From: an uncultured bacterium
Lineage (GTDB): Bacteria > Omnitrophota > Omnitrophia > Omnitrophales > JACQLI01
NCBI GenBank assembly: GCA_964372875.1
Contig: CAYJTB010000004.1
Location: 4,343-68,342, forward strand
DNA length: 64,000 bases
Reading direction: 5' to 3'
Below the pieces are notes generated by a model, which saw only the letters and a list, made by a program, of their open reading frames with translations, had not been told where the DNA came from and searched no databases. Every line of letters starts with the position of its first letter. Position 1 is the stretch's first letter. Positions 6,087 through 61,315 of this stretch are shown here, piece by piece. The position numbers and the translations under genes were made by a program.

Positions 6087-6099
6087 AAACTCGTCTTTG

Positions 6100-6187
6100 G
6101 TCATCCTGAGCAGGGCGACACGTCTTCGAGTGCGGCAAAGCCGCGAGGATCTGGGATCTTTCAGCCGCTTCGTGTCTTCAGGATGAC
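6100..6187. repeat. Palindromic repeat element, copy A, with termini GTCATCCTGAGC...TCAGGATGAC, immediately downstream of hppA.
   Basis: A 10-bp terminal inverted repeat forms a long hairpin. It shares internal blocks (CAAAGsCsGCGArGAwTCT and GATCTTTCAGCC) with copy B at 19368-19434. Confidence 0.6.
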
Positions 6188-23644: not shown

Positions 23645-24506
23645 CCTGGAACGAATTAAAAACGCAATCCGGAACCGGTATTTTTCAGAAAACCGGGTTG
23701 TCGTCATTGAACCGGCAAAAGGCTGGCGGATGTTGGACTTCAGAGAACTCTGGGCTTATCGGGAACTGTTTGGGGTATTGGCATTAAGAGACATCAAAAT
23801 CCGCTATAAGCAAACGGTCCTGGGTTGCGCCTGGGCCGTCATTCAACCGGTGATGGGAATGGTGGTGTTTTCTGTTATTTTCGGACATTGGGCCAAGATA
23901 CCCTCAGACGGTTACCCGTACCCAATTTTTGTTTATGCCGGACTTCTCCCTTGGAATTTTTTTGCGGCCACTCTGGCCGCAGCGGGAAATTCCGTGGTGA
24001 GTTCCTCCAATCTTATCACTAAAGTTTATTTCCCTCGCCTGATCGTTCCCATGGCTTCTTTAGGGACACCTCTTGTGGACTTTTTCATTTCCTCGTTTGT
24101 CATGCTGTCGCTCATGATATATTTCAAAGTCGGATTGCATATCAACCTTCTCGCGATTCCATTTTTGATTCTCGCCGTTATTTTTACCGCGCTCGGCGTG
24201 GGGACTTTGCTTTCGGCTTTAGTCGTTGCGTACCGCGACTTCCGATTCGTGATCCCCTTTCTTTTGCAAGTCTGGATGTATGCGACGCCCGTGATTTTTC
24301 CGATCGGGCTTGTGCCGAGCCAATGGCGGTGGGCGCTTTATCTCAATCCGATGGCCGGCATCATCGATGGGTTCAGGTCTGCATTTTTGGGAAAACCTTT
24401 TAATCTCGATGTCCTTGGGCTTTCCTTTTGTGCGGGCATCGTCATGTTTATTATTGGGGTAGCTTATTTCGAAAAAGTCGAGCGCCGTTTCGCGGATGTA
24501 ATTTGA
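23628..24506 (+). CDS. wzm: ABC-2 type polysaccharide export permease (Wzm/KpsM/TagG-like).
   Basis: Six TM helices and an ABC-2 permease signature. The cognate ATPase lies about 3.9 kb downstream, beyond an accessory insertion. Confidence 0.8.
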   Translation: MLKMVSLERIKNAIRNRYFSENRVVVIEPAKGWRMLDFRELWAYRELFGVLALRDIKIRYKQTVLGCAWAVIQPVMGMVVFSVIFGHWAKIPSDGYPYPIFVYAGLLPWNFFAATLAAAGNSVVSSSNLITKVYFPRLIVPMASLGTPLVDFFISSFVMLSLMIYFKVGLHINLLAIPFLILAVIFTALGVGTLLSALVVAYRDFRFVIPFLLQVWMYATPVIFPIGLVPSQWRWALYLNPMAGIIDGFRSAFLGKPFNLDVLGLSFCAGIVMFIIGVAYFEKVERRFADVI

Positions 24507-25699: not shown

Positions 25700-26085
25700 G
25701 TGGATTAACGGTGAAAAAGAAATCGACAGGCCGTGAACAAGCTCAGGGATTCAACTTCTTCAAAAAAGCGGGGCCTTCTTCATCCTCCTGGGAGAATCAA
25801 GTTCGCAGCCTCTGGAGGGAGTATCTCGTTGAGACGTTGGGGAGACCCGAGGAGAATGCCCGCGAGAGGATCGAGCAAGAGATTTCAGCTTCTATCTATC
25901 ACGAACTTCTCTCCGGATTGGAAACGGCGGGATGGAAATTTGAGGGAAGCGTGGCCATTGACATCGGCTGCGGCACGGGCGGCCTTGTGGGTGAACTCGT
26001 AAAACGATCGGCCCATGCGGTGGGAATCGAACCCGGCACGGCTTGGCGCGAAGCGCCGAGCCAACGGCTGTTATCCTTGGGGTAG
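25696..26085 (+). pseudogene. 3'-truncated class I SAM-dependent methyltransferase fragment.
   Basis: Only motif I (IDIGCGTGGLVGELV) and motif post-I are present. The ORF runs into direct-repeat copy 2 and stops after 129 aa. Confidence 0.5.
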
Positions 26086-26130
26086 CTTATTTCGAAAAAG
26101 TCGAGCGCCGTTTCGCGGATGTAATTTGAT
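26077..26130. repeat. A 54-bp perfect direct repeat, copy 2, duplicating the wzm 3' end.
   Basis: Identical to 24454-24507. Confidence 0.85.
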
Positions 26131-26214: not shown

Positions 26215-26679
26215 TCAATTTGAACCATGGCCGGAAGGGGTTCCCAGATTTTTCAAATACCGGGTCAAATAAAATTGCTGAATGCGTCTGAGAGGGGCCG
26301 TATCTTGATAACGACGAAAAGTATCAACAAAGACCTGCTGTTCCAGGAGAGAATCGCGGCAGTAGACGAGGATGCCCTGCGTGAAAGTTTGATATTGAAG
26401 AAGAGGCGGTGCTTGGTTGAGGAGGACCAAATCGATCCGATTACTTTGAAAAGCACTCATGAGGCAGCCTGTGAGATGAGCTTCGTAGCCGTAAGGATAT
26501 TTTTTCTCTCCGGCTTTTTCCTCATTAATAAAGACACCCATGTCAATATCGCTGAGGGGTGTTGTCCGGCCTTGGACAGAGGATCCGAAGAGGTAGGCGA
26601 ACGAGACCTCCTCCCGCTTTTCACAGAAGGCGACAAGCTTTTGTTTGAGTGTTTCAAGATCCAAAATCATAGCAGGCAA
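26215..26679 (-). CDS. Nucleotidyltransferase-domain protein (MNT / Pol-beta superfamily), solitary.
   Basis: LFGSSVQGRTTPLSDIDMGVF (GS...DxD) minimal nucleotidyltransferase motif. It lies on the opposite strand to the surrounding locus and has no adjacent HEPN partner. Confidence 0.65.
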   Translation of the reverse strand: MPAMILDLETLKQKLVAFCEKREEVSFAYLFGSSVQGRTTPLSDIDMGVFINEEKAGEKKYPYGYEAHLTGCLMSAFQSNRIDLVLLNQAPPLLQYQTFTQGILVYCRDSLLEQQVFVDTFRRYQDTAPLRRIQQFYLTRYLKNLGTPSGHGSN

Positions 26680-26780: not shown

Positions 26781-26796
26781 TTATCATAAATGATAA
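26781..26796. promoter_or_regulatory. Perfect inverted repeat TTATCATaaATGATAA about 10 nt upstream of the abiEi start. It is a candidate autoregulatory operator.
   Basis: Two 7-bp palindromic arms with a 2-nt spacer. AbiEi antitoxins are known to bind inverted repeats in their own promoters. Confidence 0.4.
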
Positions 26797-26805
26797 TTAA
26801 ACAAA

Positions 26806-27444
26806 ATGAAATTTATAGAGTTCGTACAGGCCTTTGGGAGACTCCCCCTCATTGAAACAGAAAATCTGTTGGCAGGAGCCGCCGATAGCGCCGCGATTAA
26901 AGTGCAACTCAGCCGTTGGACAAGAAGTGGAAAAATTATTCAGCTCAAAAGGGGCGTCTATCTTTTGGCCGAGTCCTATCGCCGGGTGGAGCCTTACGAA
27001 CCTTTTATCGCATCCATTTTGAAAAAGCCGTCTTATCTGAGCCTTGAAAAAGCCCTTGAGCATCATCATTTAATTCCGGAAAGTGTGCCCGTCTATACCT
27101 CGGTGACCCCCAAAGGGCCAGCGAGATTTATTTCCGAACTAGGCAGTTTTAATTATCGGCACATCCAGCCTTCTCTTTTCTGGGGATACGAATCAGTCAC
27201 CGTTCGCCGCCAAACAGCCTTTATCGCTACTCCGGAGAAAGCTCTCTTAGATTTGATCTATCTCAAAGCAGGAGAAATTTCCGGGGATTACTTGGAAGAA
27301 ATGAGGCTGGAGAACCTTCAAGCCCTCCGGCCTACCCGAGTTTTGGCGCATGCCGCGCGCTTTAACATGCCCCGTATGGCGCGCGCAGCCCGAGTGCTCA
27401 CCGCTTTTATCCGCTCACGCCGCCGGGAGGAAAAAACGCTTTGA
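26806..27444 (+). CDS. abiEi: Type IV toxin-antitoxin / abortive-infection antitoxin AbiEi-family protein.
   Basis: An N-terminal wHTH and an AbiEi_4-like domain (KRGVYLL...KALLDLIYL). It is followed by an AbiEii-family nucleotidyltransferase gene. Confidence 0.65.
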   Translation: MKFIEFVQAFGRLPLIETENLLAGAADSAAIKVQLSRWTRSGKIIQLKRGVYLLAESYRRVEPYEPFIASILKKPSYLSLEKALEHHHLIPESVPVYTSVTPKGPARFISELGSFNYRHIQPSLFWGYESVTVRRQTAFIATPEKALLDLIYLKAGEISGDYLEEMRLENLQALRPTRVLAHAARFNMPRMARAARVLTAFIRSRRREEKTL

Positions 27445-27463
27445 TCCCATCACCTCCATTGCA

Positions 27464-27500
27464 AAAGGATGCCAATAAAGATCAGGAGCATCCTTTTGAA
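27464..27500 (+). terminator. Hairpin (GGATGC-loop-GCATCC, extendable to AAAGGATGC/GCATCCTTT) followed by TTTTG, between abiEi and abiEii. It could be an intrinsic terminator or attenuator.
   Basis: A stem of 6-9 bp, a 15-nt loop and a U-run. It sits in the 105-nt gap between genes that are normally tightly coupled. Confidence 0.3.
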
Positions 27501-27549
27501 ACCCTGTGGGTTTCCTCGATGCGAGGCATCGAAGAATGGAGATGATGGG

Positions 27550-28359
27550 ATGAAAGATTACGTTCTCGAGCTCGCTCGGTCCCAAAAAGATTCAAATGCC
27601 AAACTGAACACGATGCGCGAATACCTTCAGGCTTACATTTTAAAAATCTTGCACGGGCAGGGTTTTTTTCGGACGAATGCCTTTGTGGGAGGCACAGCCT
27701 TGAGATTTCTCCATGGCTTGCCCCGTTTTTCAGAAGACTTGGATTTTTCGAAGGAGAAGCAACCCGCCGATTCTTTCGAAGCATTTTTAAAAAAACTTAA
27801 GCGCGAATTGGAGCTAGCCGGCTACGAAATCTCCATTTCCTGCCGAGATCAAAAAACCGTGCAAAAGGCATCGGTCAAATTTGAGGCCCTCCTGCACGAA
27901 GCCGGGCTTTCGCCTCTTCCGGGACAAAAATTGGCCGTCAAACTCGAGATCGATACCCATCCTCCTGAAGGAGCCGGCTTAAAAACAGAAATTGTTAACA
28001 AATATTTCCCAATCGCCTTCCTCTCGTATGACCTGCCATCCCTTTTTGCCGGAAAATTGACGGCGCTTTTTTTAAGAAGGTACACCAAGGGCCGGGATCT
28101 TTTTGATTTGGGGTGGTATCTATCCCGTTGGAGAGGGCTGGTTCCCAACCTAGCGCTTTTGCGGAACGGACTCGAACAGGCTTCTTGGCGGGGACCGCTT
28201 CCGACAGAATCAACTTGGCGGGATCCAGTTTACGGTTTCGTTGAGAAAATCGATTGGGAACGAGTTAGAGAAGACGTCCAAAATTTCCTGGAGAACCCCT
28301 CTGATTTGGATGTTTTTACCAAAGACAACGTACTTGGGCTCGTTAAGGAAAAGCGTTGA
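27550..28359 (+). CDS. abiEii: AbiEii/AbiGii-family nucleotidyltransferase toxin (DUF1814).
   Basis: TMREYLQAYILKIL...FVGGTALRFLHGLPRFSEDLDFS is the AbiEii NTase motif (GG...SxDxD). The start is taken at MKDYVLE. Confidence 0.7.
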   Translation: MKDYVLELARSQKDSNAKLNTMREYLQAYILKILHGQGFFRTNAFVGGTALRFLHGLPRFSEDLDFSKEKQPADSFEAFLKKLKRELELAGYEISISCRDQKTVQKASVKFEALLHEAGLSPLPGQKLAVKLEIDTHPPEGAGLKTEIVNKYFPIAFLSYDLPSLFAGKLTALFLRRYTKGRDLFDLGWYLSRWRGLVPNLALLRNGLEQASWRGPLPTESTWRDPVYGFVEKIDWERVREDVQNFLENPSDLDVFTKDNVLGLVKEKR

Positions 28360-44019: not shown

Positions 44020-44175
44020 GTTACTATCATTAAAATTATCCAAGTCCCATTTTGTTTTTATCCCGACGCGGTCGGGGGAACGGAAGTTTATGCCGAAGCG
44101 CTCGCTAAAAATTTGAAAAAGCTGAGCATAGAATCCGTAGTTTGCGAGCCTGCGGAGAGAGAAGAAGTGATATAA
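44020..44175 (+). pseudogene. Orphan 5' fragment of a GT4 gene (about 50 codons), duplicating the start of the GT4 gene at 44934.
   Basis: It translates to IIKIIQVPFCFYPDAVGGTEVYAEALAKNLKKLSIESVVCEPAERE, against the intact gene's FKTLQVPFCFYPDAVGGTEVYVEALAQGLKKFGVESVICAPAEKE. The first roughly 70 nt are near-identical and similarity then decays. Confidence 0.6.
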
Positions 44176-44200
44176 TGCCGCCAAAAGGGAAGAGAAACTC

Positions 44201-44536
44201 ATGAACATTCAAGAAACTCCCAACCAAAAAGTCATTCTCGATATCGTCGATAGAATCAAAAAAAACTACCGTCCTCAAAAAATCATTCTTTTCGGTTCCT
44301 ACGCTTACGGCCAGCCTCATCGGGATAGCGATATTGATTTGATGGTCGTTAAAGAAACTTCCGAAAGACCCATCGATCGGAGAGTGAATGTTAGCCGGAT
44401 TGTTTCGGATCCAAAGCGGCTTGTCCCATTCGGGGTGATCGTATTGACTCCTCAGGAGCTTTCCGATCGGCTTAATCGGGGAGATCAATTTATTGCTGAG
44501 ATTATAAAAAATGGCAGAATCTTGTATGAAGGGTAA
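44201..44536 (+). CDS. Minimal nucleotidyltransferase (MNT), the antitoxin-like partner of a HEPN protein.
   Basis: ILFGSYAYGQPHRDSDIDLMVV (GS...DxD). Confidence 0.75.
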   Translation: MNIQETPNQKVILDIVDRIKKNYRPQKIILFGSYAYGQPHRDSDIDLMVVKETSERPIDRRVNVSRIVSDPKRLVPFGVIVLTPQELSDRLNRGDQFIAEIIKNGRILYEG

Positions 44537-44921
44537 AGAATCCAATTATCCTTCGGACTGGTTCCGGCTCGGCGACAAAGAACTTATCCGCGCAAGAAAT
44601 CTTCTAAAACTGGATGACCTGGACGGAGCCGCTTTCAACCTTCAGCAGGCTTTGGAAAAATATCTCAAAGGCTATCTGCTCTCAAAGGGATGGGCGCTTC
44701 GCCGGATTCATGATTTGGACACTCTTTTGAACGAGACCGTTCAGCATGATGCCTCCTTTGAGAAATTTCGGGAAGCCTGTCTAAAAATTACTCAATATTA
44801 CATCGAAGATCGTTATCCTTTCACGGGGAATTCCGAGTTAACCAAGACAGAAATCGAGGATTCTCTTGAAACTTCAGAACAATTGATAAAAAAAATTCGC
44901 CGGTCATTTGATTTGATCTAG
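44511..44921 (+). CDS. HEPN-domain protein, the toxin-like partner of the MNT.
   Basis: Alpha-helical, with the Rx4-6H motif (RRIHDL). It overlaps the MNT gene by 26 nt. Confidence 0.7.
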   Translation: MAESCMKGKESNYPSDWFRLGDKELIRARNLLKLDDLDGAAFNLQQALEKYLKGYLLSKGWALRRIHDLDTLLNETVQHDASFEKFREACLKITQYYIEDRYPFTGNSELTKTEIEDSLETSEQLIKKIRRSFDLI

Positions 44922-44933: not shown

Positions 44934-46310
44934 TTGTTCAAAACTCTCCAAGTCCCATTTTGTTTTTACCCCGACGCGGTCGGGGGAACGGAAGTTTATG
45001 TTGAAGCACTCGCTCAAGGTTTAAAAAAATTTGGAGTGGAGTCCGTGATATGCGCGCCGGCTGAAAAGGAGAGCGCCTATTCTCACAAAGGTCTCAAGGT
45101 TCGGCGCTTTGCTGTTCCTTCTGCGGTAAGTGATCTTCGGGAGCTTTACGGTGAAGGGAATTTCGAAGCAGCCCGGGCATTCTCCAAGATTTTGGATGAG
45201 GAAAAACCGGACCTTGTTCATCTTCACGCCTTCACGCGCGGCGTTTCTCTTCGTTTGGTACGCGAAGCAAAATCCAGAGGAATTCCTATTATCTTTACAT
45301 ATCACACGCCGACCGTGAGTTGCCAGCGGGGAACCTTGGTGCGTTGGGGTAAAGAAATCTGTGACGGCGTTCTTCGGCAGCGTCTCTGTTCTCAATGCAC
45401 GCTTCATGGCTTGGGAATGAATCGATTGGCTGCTCAAGCAATAGGAAGTCTTCCGTCCGTCGTCGGCCGGCTCATGGGACGAATGGGTCTCGCTGGAGGA
45501 GCTTGGACGGCCCTCCGAATGTCAGAACTTGTCAGACTCCGCCACCAAACACTTCATCGGTTTCTAGGAGAAGTTGACTCCATTGTTGCAACAGCTTATT
45601 GGGTCAGGGATCTTCTGGTTCGGAATCACGTATCCCCTCACAAGATCGCCGTCTCTCGGTATGGATTGTGTCAACCCTCCGCGCTCTCTACGAACTGCTC
45701 AAAATCGGAAGTCACGAGCTCACGACTAAGATTAAAAGTTGCTTTTATGGGTCGCATGGATAAGACCAAAGGACTTCATATTTTGATTCAGGCTGTGAAA
45801 TCGTCTCTTCGCCTTTCCGTCACCTTGGATCTTTATGGGGTTGCGCAAGGAGAATTCGGCCATGGCTATGAACGGGAGATGCATGCTTTGGCCGGAGAGG
45901 ATAGACGAATCACTTTCCATCCCTCCCTCCATGGCGAAGAAATTATATCTACATTGAAAAATTTCGATGTCCTCGCCGTCCCCTCTCAATGGTTGGAGAC
46001 AGGACCTATGGTGGTTCTGGAGGCATTCGCAGCTGGAATTCCCGTCGTGGGGTCGAATTTAGGCGGGATTTCAGAATTTGTTAAACATGAAACCAACGGC
46101 CTTTTGGTGGAAGAATTTCGATCAGCAAAAACATGGGCCGAATCCTTTCAGCGGCTTGTTGACAGCCCGGATTTGGTGGCCCGTTTGTCACGTGGGATAA
46201 AAGCTCCGAGAACCGTAGAAGAAATTGCCCAAGATATAATGTCTTTATATGAAACCCAACTTAGAAACAAAAACCCAAAGATTAAAGCCGCCCATGATGC
46301 CGACACTTAG
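44934..46310 (+). CDS. Glycosyltransferase family 4.
   Basis: GT-B fold with a C-terminal motif (ETGPMVVLEAFAAGIPVVGS). Confidence 0.75.
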   Translation: MFKTLQVPFCFYPDAVGGTEVYVEALAQGLKKFGVESVICAPAEKESAYSHKGLKVRRFAVPSAVSDLRELYGEGNFEAARAFSKILDEEKPDLVHLHAFTRGVSLRLVREAKSRGIPIIFTYHTPTVSCQRGTLVRWGKEICDGVLRQRLCSQCTLHGLGMNRLAAQAIGSLPSVVGRLMGRMGLAGGAWTALRMSELVRLRHQTLHRFLGEVDSIVATAYWVRDLLVRNHVSPHKIAVSRYGLCQPSALSTNCSKSEVTSSRLRLKVAFMGRMDKTKGLHILIQAVKSSLRLSVTLDLYGVAQGEFGHGYEREMHALAGEDRRITFHPSLHGEEIISTLKNFDVLAVPSQWLETGPMVVLEAFAAGIPVVGSNLGGISEFVKHETNGLLVEEFRSAKTWAESFQRLVDSPDLVARLSRGIKAPRTVEEIAQDIMSLYETQLRNKNPKIKAAHDADT

Positions 46311-47141
46311 ACAGGCTATCCGTAAGGCATGTCGTTACTTCGAAGAGATGAGGTTTATTTTCAGGTTTGGTGCCAATCAAAAGATTACGTGGTCCTTGCT
46401 TATCGCCATGACTCAGTTTCACCTGCGGAACCACTTTGGCCGGACAAAAAAGAACCAAAAGGAAGCCACGAAGCGTTACTGCCTTAAGTTAATGAACCGA
46501 ACCATTGATGTCTGGTTTCGTACTTATGCGGGCGATCTCTTCGTCTTGAACGAAGTATTTTTAGATCAATGCTATCGATTGCCGAAATTCCTGGATTGTT
46601 CTTTTCGGAATATCATCGATCTCGGAGCCAATGTAGGTTTGACCACACTCTATTTCAGCCAGTATTTTCCAAAAGCTAATTTTGTCTGCATTGAACCAAA
46701 CCCGGAAAACTTTCTCCTCCTTAAAAGAAATCTTTCATCTCTGAGAGTCACCCTCATTGAAGAGCTGTCAATTCTCATTCTGGAGAAGCTTGGTTTGACG
46801 ATTCGAAGCCGAGTTGGGGCGGATGCCTCACCACCATGCGCCCTTCGGGGAAGGAGATCAGAACTTATTCAATGGACCAAATCATGCAAGAATGCGGTTT
46901 GGAATCGACCGATCTTCTCAAGGTAGATATCGAGGGAGCAGAAAAACAGGTGTTTGACGGTGTCAAAGCATGGCTTAACGTCGTTAAAATGATCATCATT
47001 GAACTACATGGAAGCTATCCCCTTGCCGATTTCGAAAAAGAGGTATCAAAGAGTGGATTTCGGGTATTACCTCCAAATTCAGAATACAGAAACAAAATGG
47101 TTATGGCCCTATCACCTACCGCAATCTCGAAAGAATTTTGA
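46249..47141 (+). pseudogene. FkbM-family methyltransferase split by a frameshift into two ORFs (46249..46926 and 46836..47141).
   Basis: The N-terminal part carries IIDLGANVGLTTLYF (the FkbM SAM motif). The C-terminal part (LLKVDIEGAEKQVFDG...ELHG) is in a different frame. Confidence 0.5.
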
Positions 47142-47144
47142 ATT

Positions 47145-48296
47145 TTGAATAAGGTTATCTACATACAGTATACCAATCCAGCCGGATACCCTTCGCTGGA
47201 ACACAGCTCCCGGATTCTGGCGGACCGCGGCTGGCAGGTACGCTTCTTAGGCACGGGTGCCTTTGGCGCGAATAGATTGCAATTTCAGGAACATCCCAGG
47301 ATTTCGGTCAAACTTCTTCCCTTCTGCCGCGAAGGATGGAAACAAAAACTTCACTATCTCTGGTTTTGTGTCTGGACGATTACTTGGTTTCTATTCTGGC
47401 GCCCCCAATGGATCTACGCTTCGGACCTTTGGTCATGCCCCCTTGCTTGGTTCCTGAGCCTCCTAGGAGCACGAATCATTTATCACGAACATGATTCACC
47501 CGGAAGTTCTGGCGGAAGATTATGGTTTAACCTATGTCATTGGTGTCGGAGAAAAATCGCTCGTCAAGCCAATGTAGTCGTCATTCCAAGTAAAGAACGA
47601 GCGGACAGATTTTTAAATGATACTCAGACTCATCGTATGATCCATTGCATTTGGAACTGCCCAAGCAAAAGAGAAATGTCCACCTTGCGTCAATCTCTCG
47701 CCAAAGAAAATGGCGATCCCACCCTCAAAATTTATTATCACGGGAGTCTCAATCCTTATCTGCTTCCGTTAACGTTGCTAAAGGCGCTTGCATTGCTGGA
47801 GGGGCAGGTTCGGTTATTGGCTATCGGTTACGAAACAGTCGGTTCTCAAGGTTATCGAAATATTTTTGAACAAAGAGCCAAGGAAATAGGTGTAAAAAAA
47901 TATGTATCTCTCTTTCCGCCGAAGCCTCGGTCCGAGTTGTTTCATTTAGCGGCACAATGTGAAGTAGGACTGGCTCTCTTTCCGATGCACTCGGACGATT
48001 TCAATTTTCAACACATGGTAGGGGCTTCCAACAAACCTTTCGATTACCTAGCGAACGGCCTCGCCGTTTTGGTTTCTGATCTGCAAGATTGGAAGGAGAT
48101 GTATGTGGAGCCGGGGTATGGATTGGCTTGTGACCCCAGTGACCCCCAAAGTATTGCTGCCCGTCTTCAGTGGTTTTTAGACCACCGTGAAGAAACGCAA
48201 TCTATGGGCGAGCGCGGCCGGCAGCGGATTTTATCCGAGTGGAATTATGAACGGCAGTTTGCGCCGGTTTTGAAACAGCTACTGGTCCACCGATAA
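47145..48296 (+). CDS. Glycosyltransferase family 4.
   Basis: GT-B fold with N-terminal WQVRFLG and a C-terminal nucleotide-sugar-binding domain. Confidence 0.7.
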   Translation: MNKVIYIQYTNPAGYPSLEHSSRILADRGWQVRFLGTGAFGANRLQFQEHPRISVKLLPFCREGWKQKLHYLWFCVWTITWFLFWRPQWIYASDLWSCPLAWFLSLLGARIIYHEHDSPGSSGGRLWFNLCHWCRRKIARQANVVVIPSKERADRFLNDTQTHRMIHCIWNCPSKREMSTLRQSLAKENGDPTLKIYYHGSLNPYLLPLTLLKALALLEGQVRLLAIGYETVGSQGYRNIFEQRAKEIGVKKYVSLFPPKPRSELFHLAAQCEVGLALFPMHSDDFNFQHMVGASNKPFDYLANGLAVLVSDLQDWKEMYVEPGYGLACDPSDPQSIAARLQWFLDHREETQSMGERGRQRILSEWNYERQFAPVLKQLLVHR

Positions 48297-48321
48297 ATCA
48301 TAGGGAGTTCAGATATGAGGG

Positions 48322-49617
48322 CTAAAGAAGATAGTACCAGGCGGGGATCATCCGGATTTTCCCGGAAATCTGGTAGCGATCCTTTGAAACCAGGATTTTT
48401 GATTTGCTCTTTAGAGAAGTCTTCTGAAAAGCTTCCATTTCCCGCGGTGGAATCGAATCCGTATAGCAAGTCTGGACCAAATGAGTCCCCTGTTTAAGAA
48501 AAGCGAAATCAATCTCGGGATCTTCGGTGTACCCCAGCCCCTTTTCATCCTTGAGGGCCTGGAAAACCAGGTTTTCAATCAGGAAGCCGCTGTCCCGGTC
48601 GACATTCCATGCCGCCGCATTTCGCAGACCGATATCAGCGACATAAATCTTCTTGCGAATCGTTTCTCTAAGTCTGGGTTTGAGGGAAAAGGAAAAGGGA
48701 GGAAGAAAGGAAAAAAGACCCGACCTTTCAAAGTAAGTCAGATATTCTTTCAAGGTATCGACGGCGATGTTCAAGGTGCCGGCGAGGGAGCGATAGCTCA
48801 GGGCTCTTCCCATGTTCGAGATCAAATATAAGGCCAGGGCTTCCAGTTTAAGGGGTTGTCTAATTTCGTACCTTCTAATCAGGTCACGGTAGAGAATGTC
48901 TTGGAAATATTGTCGAAGCAGGTCTTCCTTTAAGGCGGGGTCCTTGGTGAGAACGATACCTGGAAACCCTCCCTCCTTGAGGTATTTCTCGAAATAATGT
49001 CTCAACTCCGCTCTTTGATCGATCAGGGCTTCGTAAGAGCCCCTCTCGGGCACTCTGCCCGTCTTAAAGAGGAGATACTCCCGGAAATCAAGGGGTTTGA
49101 TTTCGAAGGAAAGATTTCTTCCCGTGAGGAGGGTGGCCAGCTCAGTGGATTGCACCGCAGAAGAGGAGCCTGTCAGGATCATTTGAAGCGGCCGCTTCTG
49201 TTCATAAACTTTATTTACCCATTTTTCCCAACCCTTTACCTCCTGGATTTCATCCAGGAAGAGAAACATCTCCCCCTTGGGATTCGTGATTTTCTGGAAG
49301 GTCTCAAGGAGTTGGTCGAGAAACGAAGACCGGTCCATTTCGGGAACGAACAAATTGTTTTCGAAATTGACGAAGGCGACGTTCTGCGGAGGGACATGAT
49401 GGTTCAAAAGATGTTGAATCAGTTGGTAGAGAAGGGTGCTTTTTCCGGAACGCCTGACGCCATAGAGGATTTTCACCTCTCTGACGGAGAAGGACTTGTA
49501 AATCTTGGAGATGTATTCCTCTCGCAGGATTCCCACGTGGGTTTTGAACTCTTTTCCGTGCCACCAGGGATTGGCTTGATGGAGAGACTCCTCGATGGCG
49601 GGATTCATGTCAACCAT
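48322..49617 (-). CDS. AAA+ ATPase with a C-terminal DUF4143 domain.
   Basis: Walker A GVRRSGKST, Walker B FLFLDEIQ and a DUF4143-like C-terminal region. It is on the opposite strand to the surrounding glycosyltransferase genes. Confidence 0.7.
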   Translation of the reverse strand: MVDMNPAIEESLHQANPWWHGKEFKTHVGILREEYISKIYKSFSVREVKILYGVRRSGKSTLLYQLIQHLLNHHVPPQNVAFVNFENNLFVPEMDRSSFLDQLLETFQKITNPKGEMFLFLDEIQEVKGWEKWVNKVYEQKRPLQMILTGSSSAVQSTELATLLTGRNLSFEIKPLDFREYLLFKTGRVPERGSYEALIDQRAELRHYFEKYLKEGGFPGIVLTKDPALKEDLLRQYFQDILYRDLIRRYEIRQPLKLEALALYLISNMGRALSYRSLAGTLNIAVDTLKEYLTYFERSGLFSFLPPFSFSLKPRLRETIRKKIYVADIGLRNAAAWNVDRDSGFLIENLVFQALKDEKGLGYTEDPEIDFAFLKQGTHLVQTCYTDSIPPREMEAFQKTSLKSKSKILVSKDRYQISGKIRMIPAWYYLL

Positions 49618-49775
49618 AACCTACAATATACAAATTTTTTGTCAAGTATAATCGACAGAAAAGGGTGCCCCAGGCAAGCCCGGGGGAACCGGAGCAGTAC
49701 CTGCCCGAGGTTCCATGCCCTGGGCAGGTGGCCGAGCGAAGCGAGGTCCCTTGACATATTAACCCTAGCTCTCCT

Positions 49776-49866
49776 TGGCGAAGGCGAGGGAGGTCGCCAA
49801 CGGATCCTGGGCGAATGGAATTATGAACGGCAGTTTGCGCCGGTATTGGAGTTATTAAATGGTTAA
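49776..49866 (+). pseudogene. Orphan 3' fragment duplicating the end of the GT4 gene 47145..48296.
   Basis: It translates to GEGEGGRQRILGEWNYERQFAPVLELLNG* against the intact GERGRQRILSEWNYERQFAPVLKQLLVHR*. There is a 29-nt identical core, and its stop overlaps the next gene's ATG. Confidence 0.6.
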
Positions 49867-51130
49867 ATTCGAAAAAGTAACCGAGCAGTTTGCTGACTTT
49901 ACAAGGAGTCTCCTTGGCAGACGATTAGCTTGTCTACTCGTAAACACGACGGCTTTTATAGGACTTACACTTATGACATTCATAAGTCGAAGGCTCGTTT
50001 ATGATGAGCCGGCACATCTCGAATGTGTAGGAAGCTTATCGAAGCTCGGATTTTCGATTGCCTTTTTAAGAAATTCGTCAGTGGCCCCAGGTCCTCTTTT
50101 CTGTATCATCCACTATTTCTTGCAGCCACTGACTCATTTGCAACTTCCGTTTCTAAGATTAGTGAATATCTTCCTCCTAGGTCTTCTCATATTTGCTCTG
50201 GTGTTTTTGTTCCGGATCAAAAAAACTAAAAACAATGAAATTTTGTCGGCCTTCAGTATTTTGGGAGCGCCTATGACAATGGTGATTAGCGGGATGACGT
50301 TAACAGAGATTCCCGCAATGGTTTTCTTCTATAGCGGGCTTTTACTTCTCCTATTAAGCATTCAATCCGAAGATTATTCCAATTTTTTTAGATTCGTCTG
50401 CGCCTTGAGCGGCGGCCTAGCAATCGCGCTATCAGTTTATGGGCGCCAAACGTTTTTCGCGGCTCTTTTAGCTCTGCCGTTACTCGCAATTTATAAATGG
50501 AAATTTAAAAATTTAATTTTAATATGTCTTTGCGCAGCCCTCGTTCCTTCACTGGTCTTATTCTCTATTTGGGGGGGGAGTGCCCCTCCCCTCGTTTCTC
50601 ACATTTCGAATGGATTCTCAGTCACGAATCTATTTTTGTCCTTTTCTTATGCAGGGGTAGTAATGATGATTTTCTCACCGGCTTGGTTCAGCCTTGGCGG
50701 ATCTCTCAACCTGAAAGTATTCTTTCTCATCTTGATTGGCAATTGTTTCACAGGATTTTTCGATTTTAAACCCGGTCTTTCGATGGCTTATAAAATTTTT
50801 CCTGAATCATTAATTTGGATCTACTGGCGCATGGCATCAAGTGCGTTTATCGCCTGCGGCATTCTCTTTTTAGTTTCTATCGTAAAGAACATAAAAGAGA
50901 ATTTGAGCGACGGAATGTTTGTCTTCTTTTGTGTCACGCTTTGTTTGATTTTAGGTACTTCCGGCAAAATCACTGCCCAATATTCGAGTCGATATCTGGC
51001 TACCGCCATTCCTCTTCTTGTTTTGGTTGGGGACAATTATAGTTCGGAGTCATATTGGAAAGCGCTAAGAATGGGCCTTGGGAGCATAATCGGCATCTTA
51101 ATTCTAGCCACCTATCTAAAGTTGCTGTAG
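49859..51130 (+). CDS. GT-C family membrane glycosyltransferase (ArnT/PMT-like, PF13231-type).
   Basis: About 11 TM helices and an LVYDEPAH motif resembling the GT-C DE(x)RYAE periplasmic loop motif. Confidence 0.5.
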   Translation: MVKFEKVTEQFADFTRSLLGRRLACLLVNTTAFIGLTLMTFISRRLVYDEPAHLECVGSLSKLGFSIAFLRNSSVAPGPLFCIIHYFLQPLTHLQLPFLRLVNIFLLGLLIFALVFLFRIKKTKNNEILSAFSILGAPMTMVISGMTLTEIPAMVFFYSGLLLLLLSIQSEDYSNFFRFVCALSGGLAIALSVYGRQTFFAALLALPLLAIYKWKFKNLILICLCAALVPSLVLFSIWGGSAPPLVSHISNGFSVTNLFLSFSYAGVVMMIFSPAWFSLGGSLNLKVFFLILIGNCFTGFFDFKPGLSMAYKIFPESLIWIYWRMASSAFIACGILFLVSIVKNIKENLSDGMFVFFCVTLCLILGTSGKITAQYSSRYLATAIPLLVLVGDNYSSESYWKALRMGLGSIIGILILATYLKLL

Positions 51131-58079: not shown

Positions 58080-58903
58080 CTTATAACGAAGAGAAGAATC
58101 TCGAAACCTGTTTGAGAAGTCTTCAATCTTTGGATGCAGAGGTCTTCATTGTTGACTCAGGCAGTAGTGACCGAACCCTTGAAATCGCGAGCCGCTACAC
58201 GGAAAAAATTTATACCCACCCTTTCGAAACCCATGCCAAACAATGGAATTGGGCGTTTCAAAATCTTCCTCTCTCGGGCGATTGGATTTTAGCTTTGGAT
58301 GCCGATCAAAGGTTGACTCCCGAACTTCAAGAGGAAATTCAACAAGATGTTTTAAGGGGCGCTCCCTCTCAAATCGGCGGTTTCTATATCAAGCGCCGCC
58401 AAATTTTTCGAAATCGCTGGATCCGTCACGGGAGCTATTATCCTAAATACCTTCTCAAATTATTTCGCAAAGGAGAAGGCCATTCTGATGAAAATGAATT
58501 ATTGGATTTTCGGTTTTATGTGCGCAGAAAAACAACTAAACTTCGATGCGACTTAATTGAGGACAACCAAAAAGACAACGACCTTAACATTTGGATGGCT
58601 AAACACATCCGCTTTGCCGAGATTCAGGCGCGTGAAGAATTCTTACGCCGGAAAAATGGGATAGCCTGGAGTATCAAACCCGCTTTTATGGGGTCACCCG
58701 ATCAAAGAACCTTACTGCTTAAGGGCCTTTGGCACCGGCTGCCCCTTTATGTGAGGCCTTTTCTATATTTTTTTTACCGTTATTTTCTAAGGTTCGGATT
58801 CCTCGACGGCAAAGAAGGTTTTATTTTCCATTTCTTGCAAGGATTGTGGTATCGACTACTCATAGATATTCATCTGGATGAATTGAGGAAAAAAAACGAA
58901 TGA
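58052..58903 (+). CDS. Glycosyltransferase family 2.
   Basis: A GTG start giving (M)RTLSTIVLTYNEEKNL and a DSGSSD motif. It overlaps the upstream GT4 gene by 28 nt. Confidence 0.65.
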   Translation: MRTLSTIVLTYNEEKNLETCLRSLQSLDAEVFIVDSGSSDRTLEIASRYTEKIYTHPFETHAKQWNWAFQNLPLSGDWILALDADQRLTPELQEEIQQDVLRGAPSQIGGFYIKRRQIFRNRWIRHGSYYPKYLLKLFRKGEGHSDENELLDFRFYVRRKTTKLRCDLIEDNQKDNDLNIWMAKHIRFAEIQAREEFLRRKNGIAWSIKPAFMGSPDQRTLLLKGLWHRLPLYVRPFLYFFYRYFLRFGFLDGKEGFIFHFLQGLWYRLLIDIHLDELRKKNE

Positions 58904-58970
58904 TCATCCTCGGAATCAACGCCTATCACGGCGATGCAGCGATAATTCCGAAGAGTGGTTATTGACGTTT
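58902..58970 (+). pseudogene. Orphan 5' fragment (22 codons) duplicating the start of the carbamoyltransferase gene at 59555.
   Basis: MIILGINAYHGDAAIIPKSGY* against the intact MIILGINAYHGDASAALIVDG. Its ATG overlaps the GT2 stop (aATGAtc) as an operon-coupled start would. Confidence 0.6.
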
Positions 58971-59237
58971 GAGAAATCGCTCGATTTCGTCATGATTTCC
59001 ATACAAGGCAAGGTAATAATCAATGCCGATCTTCTTCATGATGATCCGATTCTTAAGGTCTACGCGAATCTCAAATTTATCCATGGCTAATTTCTTAAAG
59101 CCGAGTCCCGCGTTCATTTCTCCCGTTCGAATGAAGTGATCGAACGCCAAGAGAGATTTTTCTACAGATCGAGCTTCTTGACCTCTCAGTTTTTGAATCT
59201 GTTTGAGGAAGGTGGGAAGATAAAAAACGCGGCTCAC
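58959..59237 (-). CDS. RelE/ParE-family type II toxin-like protein.
   Basis: A roughly 92-aa basic protein with a FEIRV...IIM..IG..YYLALYG.H pattern. It is translationally coupled to the upstream AbrB/MazE-like gene. Confidence 0.5.
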   Translation of the reverse strand: MSRVFYLPTFLKQIQKLRGQEARSVEKSLLAFDHFIRTGEMNAGLGFKKLAMDKFEIRVDLKNRIIMKKIGIDYYLALYGNHDEIERFLKRQ

Positions 59238-59491
59238 GAACGCTTGAAAAGCTGCCGAACTTGCTCAGTCCCCCGAACGGGAACTGCCTGGTCTTTTTCT
59301 TGCGCTACAATGTGGTCAAGTCCCTCCAACGCCGTCTTTGAATAAAGAGGTTCCGGGGTAATGGGGATGATATGAATAATATTGTGGTCGACAACCACTT
59401 GGACGTAGCGCTCTGGGCCGAAGTTCACTTTCTCTGCAACTTCTTTAGGGATATTGAGTTGATTCCGACCATTGATTCGGGTAATGTTCAT
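59234..59491 (-). CDS. AbrB/MazE/SpoVT-family antitoxin-like DNA-binding protein.
   Basis: MNITRINGRNQLNIPKEVAEKVNF is a swapped-hairpin beta-barrel motif. The start is taken at the internal Met (59491). Confidence 0.5.
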   Translation of the reverse strand: MNITRINGRNQLNIPKEVAEKVNFGPERYVQVVVDHNIIHIIPITPEPLYSKTALEGLDHIVAQEKDQAVPVRGTEQVRQLFKRS

Positions 59492-59554
59492 CTTGGTCTC
59501 CTTGAGTAAAGGTAGCATAAGTACGTAATAAATGCAAATACTTATTAGATATCA

Positions 59555-61315
59555 ATGATTATCCTCGGAATTAATGCGTATCACGGTGATGCATCGGCGG
59601 CGCTCATTGTCGACGGAAAGCTCGTCTGTGCGATTGAGGAAGAGCGGCTTAATAGGATCAAACATTCGGCGGGGCTTCCAAGCCAAGCCGCGCGTGAAGT
59701 CTTGGCTCAAGCCGGAATTTCTGCTGATGATATTAACTTCATTTCTACTTCAAGAAATCCGGCCGCGAATCTTTTTCCTAAACTCGGGTTTATTTTAAAG
59801 ACGAAACCCCCGGTTTCATTTTTAAAGGATCGTCTTAGCGTTGCAGCTCATTCCAGAAATTTTCTGGGAAATCCGGCTGTCCTTTTAGAAGAAAATAAGA
59901 CTTTGAAGACAAAAGGCATCGCGGTCGAACATCATCTCTCGCACGCGGCAAGCGCCTTTTACCCGTCCGGCTTCGAGCGCGCGGCACTTCTTACGGTTGA
60001 CGGTTTCGGCGATTTCTCAAGCACGATGTTTGGCGAGGGAGTCGGAAACCGCATCAAAGTATTAAAACGCGTCCTTTTTCCGCATTCCTTAGGCGTCCTT
60101 TACACCGCCGCGACACAATTTTTAGGGTTTCCTAAATACGGTGATGAATATAAGGTGATGGGGCTTGCAGGCTTCGGTGAGCCTAGATTTTTAAAAGAAT
60201 TTCGCGAGATGATCCATTTAGAATCCGACGGGACCTTTAAATTAAATCCCGGCTATTTTCTTCATCCCAAAGGGCAATCGGATATGACGTGGTCGGAAGG
60301 GGAACCCATCTTAGGATCTCTTTATTCCGAAAAATGGATTTCCATTTTTGGTCCCCCGCGCCACCCCGAAGAAAAATTAAGCCGGAGAGACAAAGATATC
60401 GCTGCTTCAACGCAAGCTATTTTTGAAGAAGTCTATTTCCATCTGATGAATCATCTCTATGAAAAAACAAAACTTGAAAATCTTTGCCTTGCAGGCGGAT
60501 GTGCGATGAACAGTCTCGCCAATGGAAAGATTTTTGATAAAACTTCTTTCAGGAAAGTTTACATCCAGGCCGCTGCAGGTGATGCCGGCACGGCCATCGG
60601 GAGTGCATTTTATGTAGCGCATCACCGGTTAAACCAGCCGCGCAATTTTGTGATGGATCACGCCTATTGGGGACCTGAATTTTCAAAAAGTCAGGTCGAG
60701 CAGGAATTGAAATTAAAAAGAGAAGAACTCAAAAAAACGGGATGTGATATCCGCGAACTGGATGAAAATTTACTCTACCGAGAAACTGCAAAAGTTATTG
60801 CCGGCGGAAAAATCGTAGGATGGTTTCAAGGCAAGATGGAATGGGGAGCTCGCGCGCTTGGAAACCGAAGTATTCTCGTGGATCCGCGCCATCCAGGAAT
60901 GAAAGATATTCTTAATCAAAGAATCAAGCACCGGGAAGGATTTCGTCCCTTTGCCCCCTCTGTTTTAGAAGAGAAGGCAAGCGAGTGGTTTGAAATGAAA
61001 ACCGGATCCTCGCCTTTTATGAATCTTGTTTTTCCAGTCCTGCCGGAAAAAAAAGAAAGAATTCCTGCAGTCACGCATGTAGACGGAACGGCAAGAATTC
61101 ATACGGTCACAGAAAAGACCAACGCCTCTTATGCTCGCTTGATCCGCGAGTTTGAAAAATTAACGGGCGTTCCTATGCTTTTAAACACCTCTTTTAATGA
61201 AAATGAGCCTATTGTTTGCTTACCCCGCGAGGCCCTTGAATGTTTTTTGAGGACGCAAATGGATGTCCTCGTACTGGGCCCTTATTTTATTGAGAAGAGA
61301 AGCACATCAACCTAA
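59555..61315 (+). CDS. Carbamoyltransferase of the NodU/CmcH family.
   Basis: ILGINAYHGDASAAL N-terminus, an HHLSHAASAF motif and a C-terminal YrdC-like/Kae1-like domain organisation. About 586 aa. Confidence 0.85.
   Translation: MIILGINAYHGDASAALIVDGKLVCAIEEERLNRIKHSAGLPSQAAREVLAQAGISADDINFISTSRNPAANLFPKLGFILKTKPPVSFLKDRLSVAAHSRNFLGNPAVLLEENKTLKTKGIAVEHHLSHAASAFYPSGFERAALLTVDGFGDFSSTMFGEGVGNRIKVLKRVLFPHSLGVLYTAATQFLGFPKYGDEYKVMGLAGFGEPRFLKEFREMIHLESDGTFKLNPGYFLHPKGQSDMTWSEGEPILGSLYSEKWISIFGPPRHPEEKLSRRDKDIAASTQAIFEEVYFHLMNHLYEKTKLENLCLAGGCAMNSLANGKIFDKTSFRKVYIQAAAGDAGTAIGSAFYVAHHRLNQPRNFVMDHAYWGPEFSKSQVEQELKLKREELKKTGCDIRELDENLLYRETAKVIAGGKIVGWFQGKMEWGARALGNRSILVDPRHPGMKDILNQRIKHREGFRPFAPSVLEEKASEWFEMKTGSSPFMNLVFPVLPEKKERIPAVTHVDGTARIHTVTEKTNASYARLIREFEKLTGVPMLLNTSFNENEPIVCLPREALECFLRTQMDVLVLGPYFIEKRSTST

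Follow-up and report, generated by a model that had tools for sequence, protein, structure and literature searches.

Introduction

Displaced C-terminal gene parts and orphan arrays in T6SS effector-immunity, rhs and CDI loci provide a precedent for the mechanism considered here (Kirchberger 2017, PMC5361080; Jackson 2009, as cited in the same paper). In these systems a conserved gene segment anchors the incoming DNA and the resident 3′ part is shifted downstream as an orphan, with successive events building arrays whose copies come from different lineages and not from duplication. The locus described below appears to share these features, arrays being seen at two related loci (L005 and L045), but it differs in that the displaced pieces are short ends of housekeeping-type biosynthetic genes (27–48 codons) and not toxin domains with immunity genes, that the cargo lies between the copies and is not itself the variable gene end, and that displacement affects 5′ as well as 3′ ends.

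Homology-facilitated illegitimate recombination, which combines a one-sided homologous anchor with an illegitimate joint, is known from natural transformation (de Vries & Wackernagel 2002; Prudhomme 2002; Meier & Wackernagel 2003, as cited in PMC5361080; see also PMC3240628) and has been shown experimentally only in the naturally competent Acinetobacter, Streptococcus and Pseudomonas and, by conjugation, in E. coli (PMC3240628). Recombination units that run from the 3′ portion of an ORF into the 5′ portion of its neighbour were reported by Tsuru & Kobayashi 2008 (PMC2568036). The likeness is that the exchanged unit crosses gene borders and the orphan stays with the start of the next gene, and the difference is that theirs are tandem paralogues in one species, whereas here unrelated cargo genes are inserted.

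The gene inserted at our locus belongs to the PDC-S01-type ATPases, single-gene candidates for phage defence, which were ranked as the fourth commonest candidate defence system in prokaryotes and given as an unvalidated defence candidate (PMC12988326). In E. coli, one representative of the family was not among the systems protecting against T7, T5 or T4 (bioRxiv 10.1101/2024.09.26.614923). Both the gene and the recombination mechanism are of known kinds, but such junctions recur around cargo genes of this sort, in this DNA and in other genomes.

Organization of the locus

We analysed a 64,000-nt stretch of DNA from an uncultured Omnitrophota bacterium, hereafter the window. Its features are collected in Table 1. 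The setting is a mosaic polysaccharide operon of the ABC-transporter type, in which the ATPase gene lies antisense.

Table 1. Coordinates of the gene-end junctions in the window and of their cargo genes
Feature	Position	Strand	Remarks
Intact GT4 glycosyltransferase gene	47145..48296	+	383 aa; Pfam Glyco_trans_4_4 and Glycos_transf_1
Functional GT4 terminus, left repeat member	48207..48296	+	last 29 codons and stop
29-nt exact core, left copy	48240..48268		presumed crossover or gene-conversion tract
Intact AAA_14 + DUF4143 ATPase gene, PADLOC PDC-S01 type	48322..49617	-	431 aa
ATPase upstream region	49618..49652		conserved with locus L004 (CTACAATA...TTTTGTCAAGTAT), by alignment
130-nt GC-rich segment	49653..49782		missing from the orthologous L004 junction
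Orphan GT4-family terminus, right repeat member	49783..49866	+	27 codons and stop
29-nt exact core, right copy	49816..49844		identical to left copy
Downstream polytopic membrane protein gene	49859..51130	+	423 aa
Second event, orphan 5′ end of GT4 gene 44934..46310	44026..44163	+	125-nt direct repeat, 81%
Second event, cargo	44201..44921	+	nucleotidyltransferase and HEPN pair (MNT/HEPN toxin-antitoxin type)
Third event, orphan 3′ end of ABC-2 permease gene 23628..24506	26071..26130	+	58/60 nt identical to 24448-24507
Third event, cargo	about 24510-26070		Glyco_trans_1_2 ORF; methyltransferase truncated past motif I
Fourth event, orphan first 14 codons of carbamoyltransferase gene 59555..61315	58900..58941	+	
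Fourth event, cargo	58959..59518	-	two overlapping small ORFs, 92 and 94 aa; toxin-antitoxin-like layout

The GT4 protein ends in ...RQRILSEWNYERQFAPVLKQLLVHR*, and its length fits the range of its homologues (377–426 aa). The end of the gene recurs as a 66-nt ungapped direct repeat (48207-48272 vs 49783-49848, 81.8% identical, E = 5e-14), on which the repeat search and blastn agree; direct-repeat families of at least 30 nt number only six across the whole 64 kb. The right copy belongs to a reading frame that closes at 49866 with ...GGRQRILGEWNYERQFAPVLELLNG*, and its TAA (49864-49866) overlaps the ATG (49859) of the next ORF (junction ATGGTTAA). This orphan, which lies 1.58 kb downstream of the completed GT4 end, is probably a displaced gene end, still translationally coupled to the downstream gene. 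Between the two copies the ATPase gene is the sole long ORF.

These data bear out three points of the first-pass annotation, namely the opposite-strand AAA+ DUF4143 ATPase between an intact and an orphan GT4 end, the diverged repeat with its 29-nt identical core, and the overlap of the orphan stop with the downstream start as in a coupled operon. Its label "GT-C" for the downstream gene is unsupported, as the membrane protein has no Pfam match even at E <= 1 and no NCBIfam match.

Since the promoter scan of 48150-49950 found no sigma-70 consensus, the conserved region upstream of the ATPase gene can be called only a presumed promoter. A terminator scan of the same interval gave one terminator-like site, inside the ATPase gene, fewer than in shuffled sequences. 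Rfam returned nothing at the gathering threshold over the window and nothing at E <= 1 over 49560-49900, and RNA folds of the 130-nt segment were no better than those of shuffles. It should be added that Logan contigs of two samples break within this segment, at 49702 and 49727; as evidence for an alternative allele these breaks are uninformative, because another sample breaks inside the ATPase gene, so that low coverage would explain them equally well.

A transposon or IS was rejected, there being no transposase and no terminal inverted repeats, while the flanking repeat is 66–90 nt long and diverged. No transposase, integrase or other recombinase domain was found in the insert, and no inverted repeats were found at its ends. 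A reading based on tRNA and att sites was likewise rejected, as the window holds no tRNA.

Origin of the two gene ends

The first-pass annotation regarded the orphan as a duplicate of the adjacent GT4 end, and named as the contrary case a motif shared by the ends of many glycosyltransferases, that is, protein similarity without DNA duplication. Such a motif is in part what we see: MGERGRQRILxEWNYExQFxPVL forms the C-terminal end of all 120 homologues examined in the GT4 subfamily (120/120), so that protein similarity by itself proves nothing. Outside the core, codons for the same residue are identical in 4 of 11 cases, against 3.7 expected for independent draws from the codon usage of the genome. 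Inside the 29-nt core, all nine codons are identical (9/9, P = 7e-4 for independent codon draws), and with mismatches placed at random an identical run as long as 29 nt has P = 0.005. Synonymous sites outside the core are saturated, and there the divergence of the two ends is ancient. Saturated flanks together with an identical core mean that two long-diverged homologous ends stand side by side with a short tract of crossover or conversion between them; the flanks are as different as unrelated draws, and duplication of the neighbouring end does not account for them.

A local origin would require that insertion of the ATPase gene produced a long target-site or tandem duplication of the GT4 terminus, after which the copies, identical at first, grew apart, with neutral decay acting on the orphan. 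We disfavour this and consider it highly improbable. Repeat identity, from 76% to 97% across events, could reflect different ages, and the pooled mismatches by codon position (28/22/48, with 49% in third positions; P = 0.001 vs one third, P = 0.24 vs 0.45) also fit one constrained and one freely decaying copy. Yet the orphan peptide retains the family consensus with no frameshift in spite of the saturated flanks, five of the six differences in the carbamoyltransferase event are synonymous, and neither a transposase nor inverted repeats are present. The strong clustering of mismatches also argues against a local origin, as in the related locus L005, where a 76-nt exact run lies within 146 nt (0/200,000 shuffles), and in the second GT4 pair of the window, at the 5′ end (P = 0.011). 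So do the boundaries of the repeats, which fall at the stop or start codon of the gene, as expected if homology stops where the neighbouring genes differ.

Exact cores between diverged flanks, as in these two pairs and at the ATPase junction, would be explained by a Campbell-type insertion-duplication. A circle carrying about 90 nt of a GT4-family terminus and the ATPase gene would have entered by one RecA-dependent crossover in the 29-nt tract. A crossover of this type requires a stretch of identity such as the 29-nt core, whose length is close to the shortest at which homologous recombination is efficient. Insertion-duplication with a 3′-terminal fragment in the laboratory gives exactly this architecture, with an identical product of intact gene, insert and second fragment copy. 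As a natural process it is known from plasmid and phage integration, whereas here no circle or replicon was seen. We regard this route as possible but rather unlikely. It fails to cover the junctions with no identical run longer than 13 nt (locus L004, a pair with an internal gene fragment at L005, and the carbamoyltransferase event), the glycosyltransferase cargo that ends in a truncated gene, and the locus L029, where the orphan stems from a gene other than the intact neighbour; all of these must be illegitimate junctions. On the Campbell-type route the circle could have formed from an incoming fragment or have left a similar locus by excision. The two copies would then be hybrids, and after a further excision any site with the conserved terminus could take up the cassette again.

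The parents of the junction were also sought. No empty-site allele was found, the downstream membrane protein being without a relative in the genome collection scan; the nearest GT4 homologue is 57% identical, and its contig ends 16 nt past the stop. No donor allele was found either. With neither at hand, no event is reconstructed from its parents.

Similar junctions in the window and in other genomes

Four events of the gene-end displacement type occur within the window, the ATPase junction included. In the second, the orphan encodes 46 aa at 72% (tblastn) and begins 13 nt past the stop of the preceding gene. The third has as cargo a glycosyltransferase fragment followed by a cut-off methyltransferase, as expected of an illegitimate junction but not of any kind of site-specific insertion. 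In the fourth, the ATG of the orphan overlaps the TGA of the preceding GT2 gene, and the two cargo ORFs may form a toxin-antitoxin-like pair, as suggested by their layout and by a weak MazE/AbrB-like match (E = 0.0066, below the curated cut-off). Since this arrangement also surrounds toxin-antitoxin-like pairs in two events and a glycosyltransferase fragment in one, it is not confined to the ATPase.

Related ATPases are flanked likewise in three other metagenomic lineages, and a distant lineage carries a three-deep array. At L004, an ATPase with 83% identity lies between the same GT4-type ends with a different downstream gene; there too, as in the second and fourth window events, the intact gene is full-length and the orphan end keeps the original junction with its neighbour. 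As they share the position of the junction, the window and L004 may descend from one inherited event. At L005, a 146-nt repeat of an AsnB-GT4 terminus surrounds the ATPase gene, and an 89-nt internal fragment of the AsnB-GT4 gene lies beyond an adjacent MNT/HepT pair; the in-frame stop in this fragment indicates that orphans decay. At L011/L013 two tandem ATPase genes lie between the copies of a 103-nt repeat from an epimerase terminus, and at L029 the ATPase gene abuts a truncated 3′ gene fragment. L045 contains three diverged ATPase genes, and a 5′ copy of one and the same phosphoesterase gene comes after each of them. The architecture thus recurs with varied cargo and with varied target genes, namely GT4, AsnB-GT4, epimerase, ABC-2 permease, carbamoyltransferase and phosphoesterase genes.

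The check proposed in the first-pass annotation, whether DUF4143 ATPases elsewhere are flanked by copied gene ends, thus shows such ends at L004, L005, L011/L013 and L045 but not at most of the distant homologues. No flanking repeats were found at L015, L016, L018, L020 and L026, L023/25 have only intergenic repeat families, and among the 29 loci of the viral collection gene-end copies occur only at L044/45; the architecture is hence not a universal property of the family. The close ATPase subfamily was sampled at six loci in the metagenome scan and two in the genome scan. Four of the eight positive genes in the flank test belong to the AAA_14/DUF4143 family, an enrichment that carries ascertainment bias because the comparison loci were reached through the ATPase.

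The variety of events also bears on site-specific integration, in which a decayed or non-autonomous CIME-like element would have been mobilised in trans by a tyrosine or serine recombinase, with the 29-nt core as att site. Such an element would carry a replacement gene end into the 3′ end of the GT4 gene. Sites attL and attR classically show an identical core set within diverged similarity at the 3′ end of a gene, and the window repeat resembles in this respect the integrase-borne genomic islands and CIMEs, whose insert brings a replacement gene end and leaves a direct repeat with an identical core. We give this explanation very little credence, because the insert is a single ORF with no recombinase, target genes and cores differ between events, several events have no identical core, and there is no tRNA nearby.

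The ATPase

The insert encodes a full-length member of the AAA_14/DUF4143 family (COG1373, PADLOC candidate defence family PDC-S01). Pfam AAA_14 (PF13173) matches residues 46-182 with E = 5.6e-35 and DUF4143 (PF13635) residues 244-361 with E = 5.9e-17. The link to defence made in the first-pass annotation agrees with the match to PADLOC profile PDLC04787 (E = 2.4e-97; residues 29-431 on profile positions 10-407 of 412). Like other PDC-S01/COG1373 members, the protein has a full-length HMM match, both domains and TA and Abi genes near its locus (PADLOC search), but its gene lies antisense in a polysaccharide operon and not in a classical defence island. The subfamily, taken at no less than 57% identity, was met only in polysaccharide clusters. 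A role in defence is a candidate function.

Pfam, PADLOC, the AlphaFold model (pLDDT 92.4), Foldseek matches and invariant residues together indicate a predicted layout of an Orc1/Cdc6/STAND-like AAA+ module, a winged-helix region and a PD-(D/E)XK-like C-terminal domain; a search of solved structures by sequence gave none that was informative (best E-value 0.12). Across 64 ATPase sequences, G53/K59 and D122-E123 of the Walker A and Walker B motifs are invariant, as are R167, E348, D370 and R392-E393. As to the nuclease or sensor domains that the first-pass annotation proposed to look for, the predicted fold is nuclease-like, with E348 and D370 invariant, but the third motif reads Q/N382-V-C/S384, without the canonical lysine. 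K323, like R392-E393, is invariant elsewhere in the C-terminal domain.

The association of an ATPase with the PD-(D/E)XK superfamily, described for PDC-S01 (PMC12988326) and for DUF4143 (PMC3424549), raises the idea of a homing-like cassette, in which this domain would cut uninterrupted gene ends and repair would copy the gene in, the flanking ends serving as homology arms. Family ATPases are the cargo at most junctions seen, they make up half of the positive genes of the flank test, and three different ones are stacked at one site in L045. However, toxin-antitoxin-like pairs and the glycosyltransferase fragment have the same architecture without any nuclease, there is no common target sequence, insertion sites differ between hosts, the third catalytic motif is atypical, most distant homologues have no flanking repeats, and the loci were chosen through the ATPase. 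We consider homing improbable.

Discussion

On the evidence of the diverged flanks, the identical core and the recurrence of the architecture, we think it rather probable that homology-anchored recombination inserted the ATPase block and displaced the resident GT4 end. An incoming block from a diverged lineage, in which the ATPase gene lay beside the final ~30 codons of a homologous GT4 gene, would have entered the resident operon by recombination, with homology in the conserved GT4 terminus as the anchor. The GT4 gene would then be completed by one of the two ends, while the other, coupled to the next gene, would be shifted 1.58 kb downstream as an orphan. We infer the direction of transfer, that is, which end was the resident one, as well as the recombination pathway, whereas the anatomy, the family of the ATPase, the old divergence of the ends outside the core and the repeated occurrence of the architecture are shown.

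Two pathways could give this product. In one, gene conversion would have followed a homology-facilitated illegitimate recombination; in the other, a fragment closed into a circle would have entered by a single crossover. The identical 29 nt would mark the crossover site or a later conversion. The Campbell-type alternative differs from the preferred reading only in pathway. Homology-facilitated illegitimate recombination shares with our junctions the one-sided anchor and the illegitimate joint, which explains the truncated methyltransferase and the truncated gene at L029. This process usually yields insertion-deletions rather than duplications, and the exact cores seen here are not predicted by it alone. 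In its pure form it predicts no identical core and needs gene conversion or the single-crossover variant. Conversely, several of our junctions have no stretch of identity of the kind used in insertion-duplication.

The orphans retain open reading frames and could thus still be used, for example in translational coupling, rather than being mere scars. For annotation, short orphan ORFs such as 49783..49866 are better read as scars than as genes.

A more speculative proposal, which we consider unlikely, is that recombinase-free cassettes spread PDC-S01 ATPase genes and small toxin-antitoxin pairs. Each cassette would carry a short copy of the conserved end of a neighbour gene as a homology arm that lets it be spliced into operons without breaking them, and cleavage of uninterrupted targets by the PD-(D/E)XK-like domain of the ATPase might promote this, much as in homing. 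If true, one of the commonest candidate defence genes of prokaryotes would have a mode of mobility that is new.

Taken together, the locus and its relatives point to a route by which ATPase and toxin-antitoxin-like genes enter tight operons without a dedicated recombinase and with the flanking genes left intact. Should this route prove general, orphan gene ends would serve as an inexpensive marker of recent cargo turnover, and it would help to explain why defence-type genes gather in polysaccharide loci, which are themselves under phage pressure.

Structure of the ATPase junction

The window carries a long plus-strand polysaccharide operon of the ABC-transporter type, with a NusG-like gene, AsnB, an epimerase, GT4s, Wzm, Wzt and other genes. 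Here the end of a GT4 gene recurs in diverged form around a 29-nt identical core, as the first-pass annotation had stated: an ungapped direct repeat of 66 nt (81.8% identity, E = 5e-14, blastn) joins positions 48207-48272 and 49783-49848, and the exact core occupies 48240-48268 and 49816-49844. Direct-repeat families of at least 30 nt number only six in the entire 64-kb window. The overlap noted between the orphan stop and the downstream start is also present, the TAA sharing bases with the start codon of the following ORF, whose ATG lies at 49859 (ATGGTTAA), and the reverse-strand AAA+ DUF4143 ATPase is confirmed as the only long ORF separating the copies. A Pfam and NCBIfam search with the downstream 423-aa membrane protein gave no match up to E ≤ 1, and the label "GT-C" assigned to it is therefore without support.

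A GC-rich segment of 130 nt (49653-49782) stands between the upstream region of the ATPase gene and the orphan. It is missing at the orthologous junction of L004, a comparison locus fetched via an ATPase homologue; no other copy occurs in the window, nor in the loci fetched up to and including L029, and it gave no Rfam match and no significant fold. Short-read contigs of two samples end within it.

Gene ends, cargo (genes between two copies of one gene end) and neighbouring genes in the window
Feature	Position	Strand	Remarks
GT4 glycosyltransferase (left copy)	47145..48296	+	383 aa; ends ...RQRILSEWNYERQFAPVLKQLLVHR, stop
AAA_14/DUF4143 ATPase	48322..49617	-	431 aa
Orphan GT4-type end	frame closing at 49866	+	ends ...GGRQRILGEWNYERQFAPVLELLNG, stop
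Orphan 5' end of GT4 44934..46310	44026-44163	+	46 codons, 72% amino acid identity; 13 nt past preceding GT2 gene
Cargo of the 44026 junction: MNT, HEPN	44201..44536, 44511..44921		followed by intact GT4 44934..46310
Orphan 3' end of Wzm permease gene	26071-26130		last 60 nt (copy region from 24448); 58/60 nt identical
Cargo of the Wzm junction			Glyco_trans_1_2 gene and methyltransferase truncated just after SAM-binding motif (motif I)
HepT remnant, partner of MNT	~26228-26178	-	17 codons
MNT gene	26215..26679	-	between Wzm and Wzt
AbiEi/AbiEii pair	26806..27444, 27469..28359		between Wzm and Wzt (26131-28359)
Orphan 5' end of carbamoyltransferase 59555..61315	58900-58941		first 14 codons; ATG overlaps TGA of preceding GT2 gene
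Cargo of the carbamoyltransferase junction		-	two overlapping ORFs, 92 and 94 aa; toxin-antitoxin-like arrangement

Divergence of the two GT4 ends

The two copies of the GT4 terminus are real; their reading as a fresh DNA duplication is argued against by the synonymous sites. With codon usage taken from 29 ORFs of the window, codons for the same residue outside the core were identical in 4 of 11 cases, compared to 3.7 expected for independent draws, which indicates that the synonymous sites beyond the 29-nt core are saturated. Inside the core the codons were identical in 9 of 9 cases (P = 7e-4), and a 29-nt run without mismatch, given 12 mismatches in 66 nt, has a probability of 0.005 under random placement. 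At the protein level, moreover, the shared segment is a conserved C-terminal motif, MGERGRQRILxEWNYExQFxPVLxxL..., found at the end of 120 of the 120 listed GT4 homologues, many of which also have the ...LNG ending of the orphan; the nearest relative among the matches listed, the source strain itself aside, stands at 57%. A motif shared by many such ends was what the first-pass annotation had named as evidence against a DNA duplication, and for the protein sequence this is indeed the case.

Taken with the clustering of the mismatches, the saturated flanks and the identical core codons indicate that both ends are long-diverged homologues, each presumably under coding constraint until recently, and that a short tract became identical later, presumably through crossover or gene conversion. 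The spread of mismatches over codon positions fits two constrained ends as well as one constrained and one decaying copy.

The ATPase protein

The ATPase product matched AAA_14 (E = 5.6e-35) and DUF4143 (E = 5.9e-17), and along its entire length the PADLOC profile of the candidate defence family PDC-S01 (E = 2.4e-97). The solved structures closest to its AlphaFold model (64-sequence alignment, pLDDT 92.4, pTM 0.90) are Orc1/Cdc6, CED-4/Apaf-1 and the Pyrococcus Walker-type ATPase 2qen, and these neighbours indicate a predicted fold in which an initiator/STAND-like AAA+ module precedes helical and winged-helix regions. Invariant in the alignment are G53 and K59 of Walker A, D122-E123 of Walker B and R167, as well as K323, E348, D370 and R392-E393 in the C-terminal domain. 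DUF4143 has been assigned to the PD-(D/E)XK superfamily (PMC3424549), but Q/N-V-C/S occupies the canonical (D/E)xK position, and any nuclease site in the C-terminal domain is putative.

PDC-S01 is described as an unvalidated candidate that ranks fourth in frequency among the candidate defence systems of prokaryotes (PMC12988326); only one representative was tried in E. coli, and it did not figure among those that gave protection against T7, T5 or T4 (bioRxiv 10.1101/2024.09.26.614923). From the profile and domain evidence, therefore, the ATPase gene is an ordinary PDC-S01 member and looks intact.

Junctions of the same layout in the window

Three further junctions in the window share the layout of the ATPase junction. 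In three of the four events, the ATPase one included, the orphan lies tight against its former neighbour, and the complete gene stands across the cargo. The Wzm orphan departs from this rule: between it and Wzt stand the remnant of HepT, the MNT gene and the two AbiE genes. Synonymous differences in the carbamoyltransferase pair are 5/6, and one of the two small ORFs between its copies gave a weak MazE/AbrB-like match. The arrangement at 44026-44921 mirrors that of the ATPase junction.

An FkbM-type methyltransferase (46249-47141) is apparently split in two frames, 46249..46926 and 46836..47141, with the Methyltransf_21 match limited to the second part; this reflects a pseudogene with a frameshift or else a sequencing error.

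Recurrence and specificity

Ten relatives of the ATPase show 57-83% identity, after which identity drops to ≤40%. All close relatives with readable surroundings lie in polysaccharide clusters, usually beside MNT/HepT, AbiE or 23S-IVP genes. The idea that ATPase loci elsewhere are similarly flanked holds for L004, L005, L011/L013 and L045, but distant homologues mostly lack repeats.

In L004 (ATPase 83% identical) GT4-type ends stand on both sides (55 nt, 76%), and the gene downstream is a different one, for an FkbM methyltransferase, whose TTG start is overlapped by the TGA of the orphan; because the junction position is identical, the L004 and window junctions may be one ancestral event. The ATPase of L005, from a Candidatus Omnitrophota MAG, is bracketed by a 146-nt repeat (85%, 76-nt exact core) made of the end of an AsnB-GT4 gene (989 aa), and another 89-nt internal piece of this gene lies past the adjoining MNT/HepT pair. 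A 103-nt epimerase-terminus repeat (94%) in L011/L013 encloses two tandem ATPases oriented with the operon. In L029 a truncated Polysacc_synt_2 gene, of which a 190-aa 3' fragment is left, adjoins the ATPase on its promoter side; no intact copy matches this fragment.

L045, from a distant lineage at ~30% identity (IMG/VR UViG_3300045988_187866; the same in L044), is a stacked displacement array. Its three tandem ATPases (1771-6969) are mutually ~21% identical where alignable, with no match between A1 and A3, and behind each lies a 5'-end copy of one metallophosphoesterase gene, two of them orphans and one intact; the middle copy contains stop codons.

Within the L011 epimerase ORF (4469-5716) two copies of the peptide SEKREKSGSLVSSLSPL occur. 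One of them is connected to an upstream spacer by a 41-nt repeat (3576-3616 / 4956-4996), which points to the in-frame insertion of a small repeat element.

A uniform flank test on 128 genes of the window and twelve loci found a flanking direct repeat at eight, four of them of the ATPase family, a share that is a biased estimate because the loci were picked via the ATPase. Five distant-homologue loci had no flanking repeat, nor did the distant ATPases of the viral collection except in L044/45, L053/54 and L057. Since distant homologues mostly lack repeats and other cargo has the layout, the gene-end-flanked layout is neither universal in the ATPase family nor confined to it.

Repeats of other kinds were also seen. 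Those of L053/54 are a ~130-nt element and not gene ends: three copies, 91-93% identical, surround the ATPase (4878..6158) at L053 4597-6583 (same in L054), where the neighbour is a DUF262/GmrSD-like gene. The 902-nt repeat (70%) on both sides of a distant homologue in L057 (1808-2703 / 5332-6230) is probably formed by paralogous genes. Several repeat families, up to 372 nt at 94%, surround the ATPase and its neighbours in the Desulfobulbaceae locus L023 (2455-2825 / 6452-6822; same in L024 and L025); they are intergenic and not gene-end copies. The only repeat in L007-L010 is one of 32 nt, formed by a tandem-repeat motif, and in L007, at a polysaccharide-cluster edge, 7/14-nt arrays (CTTTCAC/CTTTGAG type; 6972-7900 and 9314-9359) fill the spacers of the cargo genes (23S-IVP, ATPase, AbiE-like). 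One flank is missing in L006, L012 and L014.

Mechanism and significance

No inverted repeats were found at the insert ends, and no transposase, recombinase, tRNA or Rfam family. Both site-specific integration and a nuclease with one target are argued against by target genes that differ from event to event and by the events without an identical core. Saturated synonymous sites, clustered mismatches and repeats that end exactly at stop or start codons are at odds with a long target-site duplication that later decayed.

The data fit recombination between diverged cluster versions, anchored in the conserved gene end. One partner would carry the cargo directly against this end; in the recombinant, one end would become the working terminus and the other would remain as an orphan beside its former neighbour. 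From the truncated methyltransferase of the Wzm junction and the gene fragment of L029 it is clear that the far-side joint is illegitimate in at least some events, and the junction pattern is that of homology-facilitated illegitimate recombination. The exact cores at the ATPase junction, in L005 and in the GT4 5'-end pair of the window would require an extra step, either later conversion between neighbouring repeats or a single crossover with a circularised fragment (insertion-duplication). It is possible that the ATPase itself plays an active, homing-like part, but such a role is unnecessary, since toxin-antitoxin and glycosyltransferase junctions show the same layout. The initial insertion interpretation is thus supported in part: the ATPase between two GT4 ends stands, and local duplication as the origin of these ends does not.

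For rhs, CDI and T6SS effector-immunity loci, anchored illegitimate recombination has been proposed as the source of their orphan arrays (PMC5361080). The displacement of gene 3' parts that forms those arrays is the closest described phenomenon; here, in contrast, short ends of biosynthetic genes are displaced, from either gene end, and the cargo is of defence or toxin-antitoxin type. Both the gene and the recombination scar at which it sits are of known kinds. The novelty lies in how consistently such cargo is found beside displaced gene ends, with four events in a single operon, related ATPases from three further metagenomic lineages, and one array from a distant lineage. This pattern suggests a recombinase-free entry of defence-type genes into operons.
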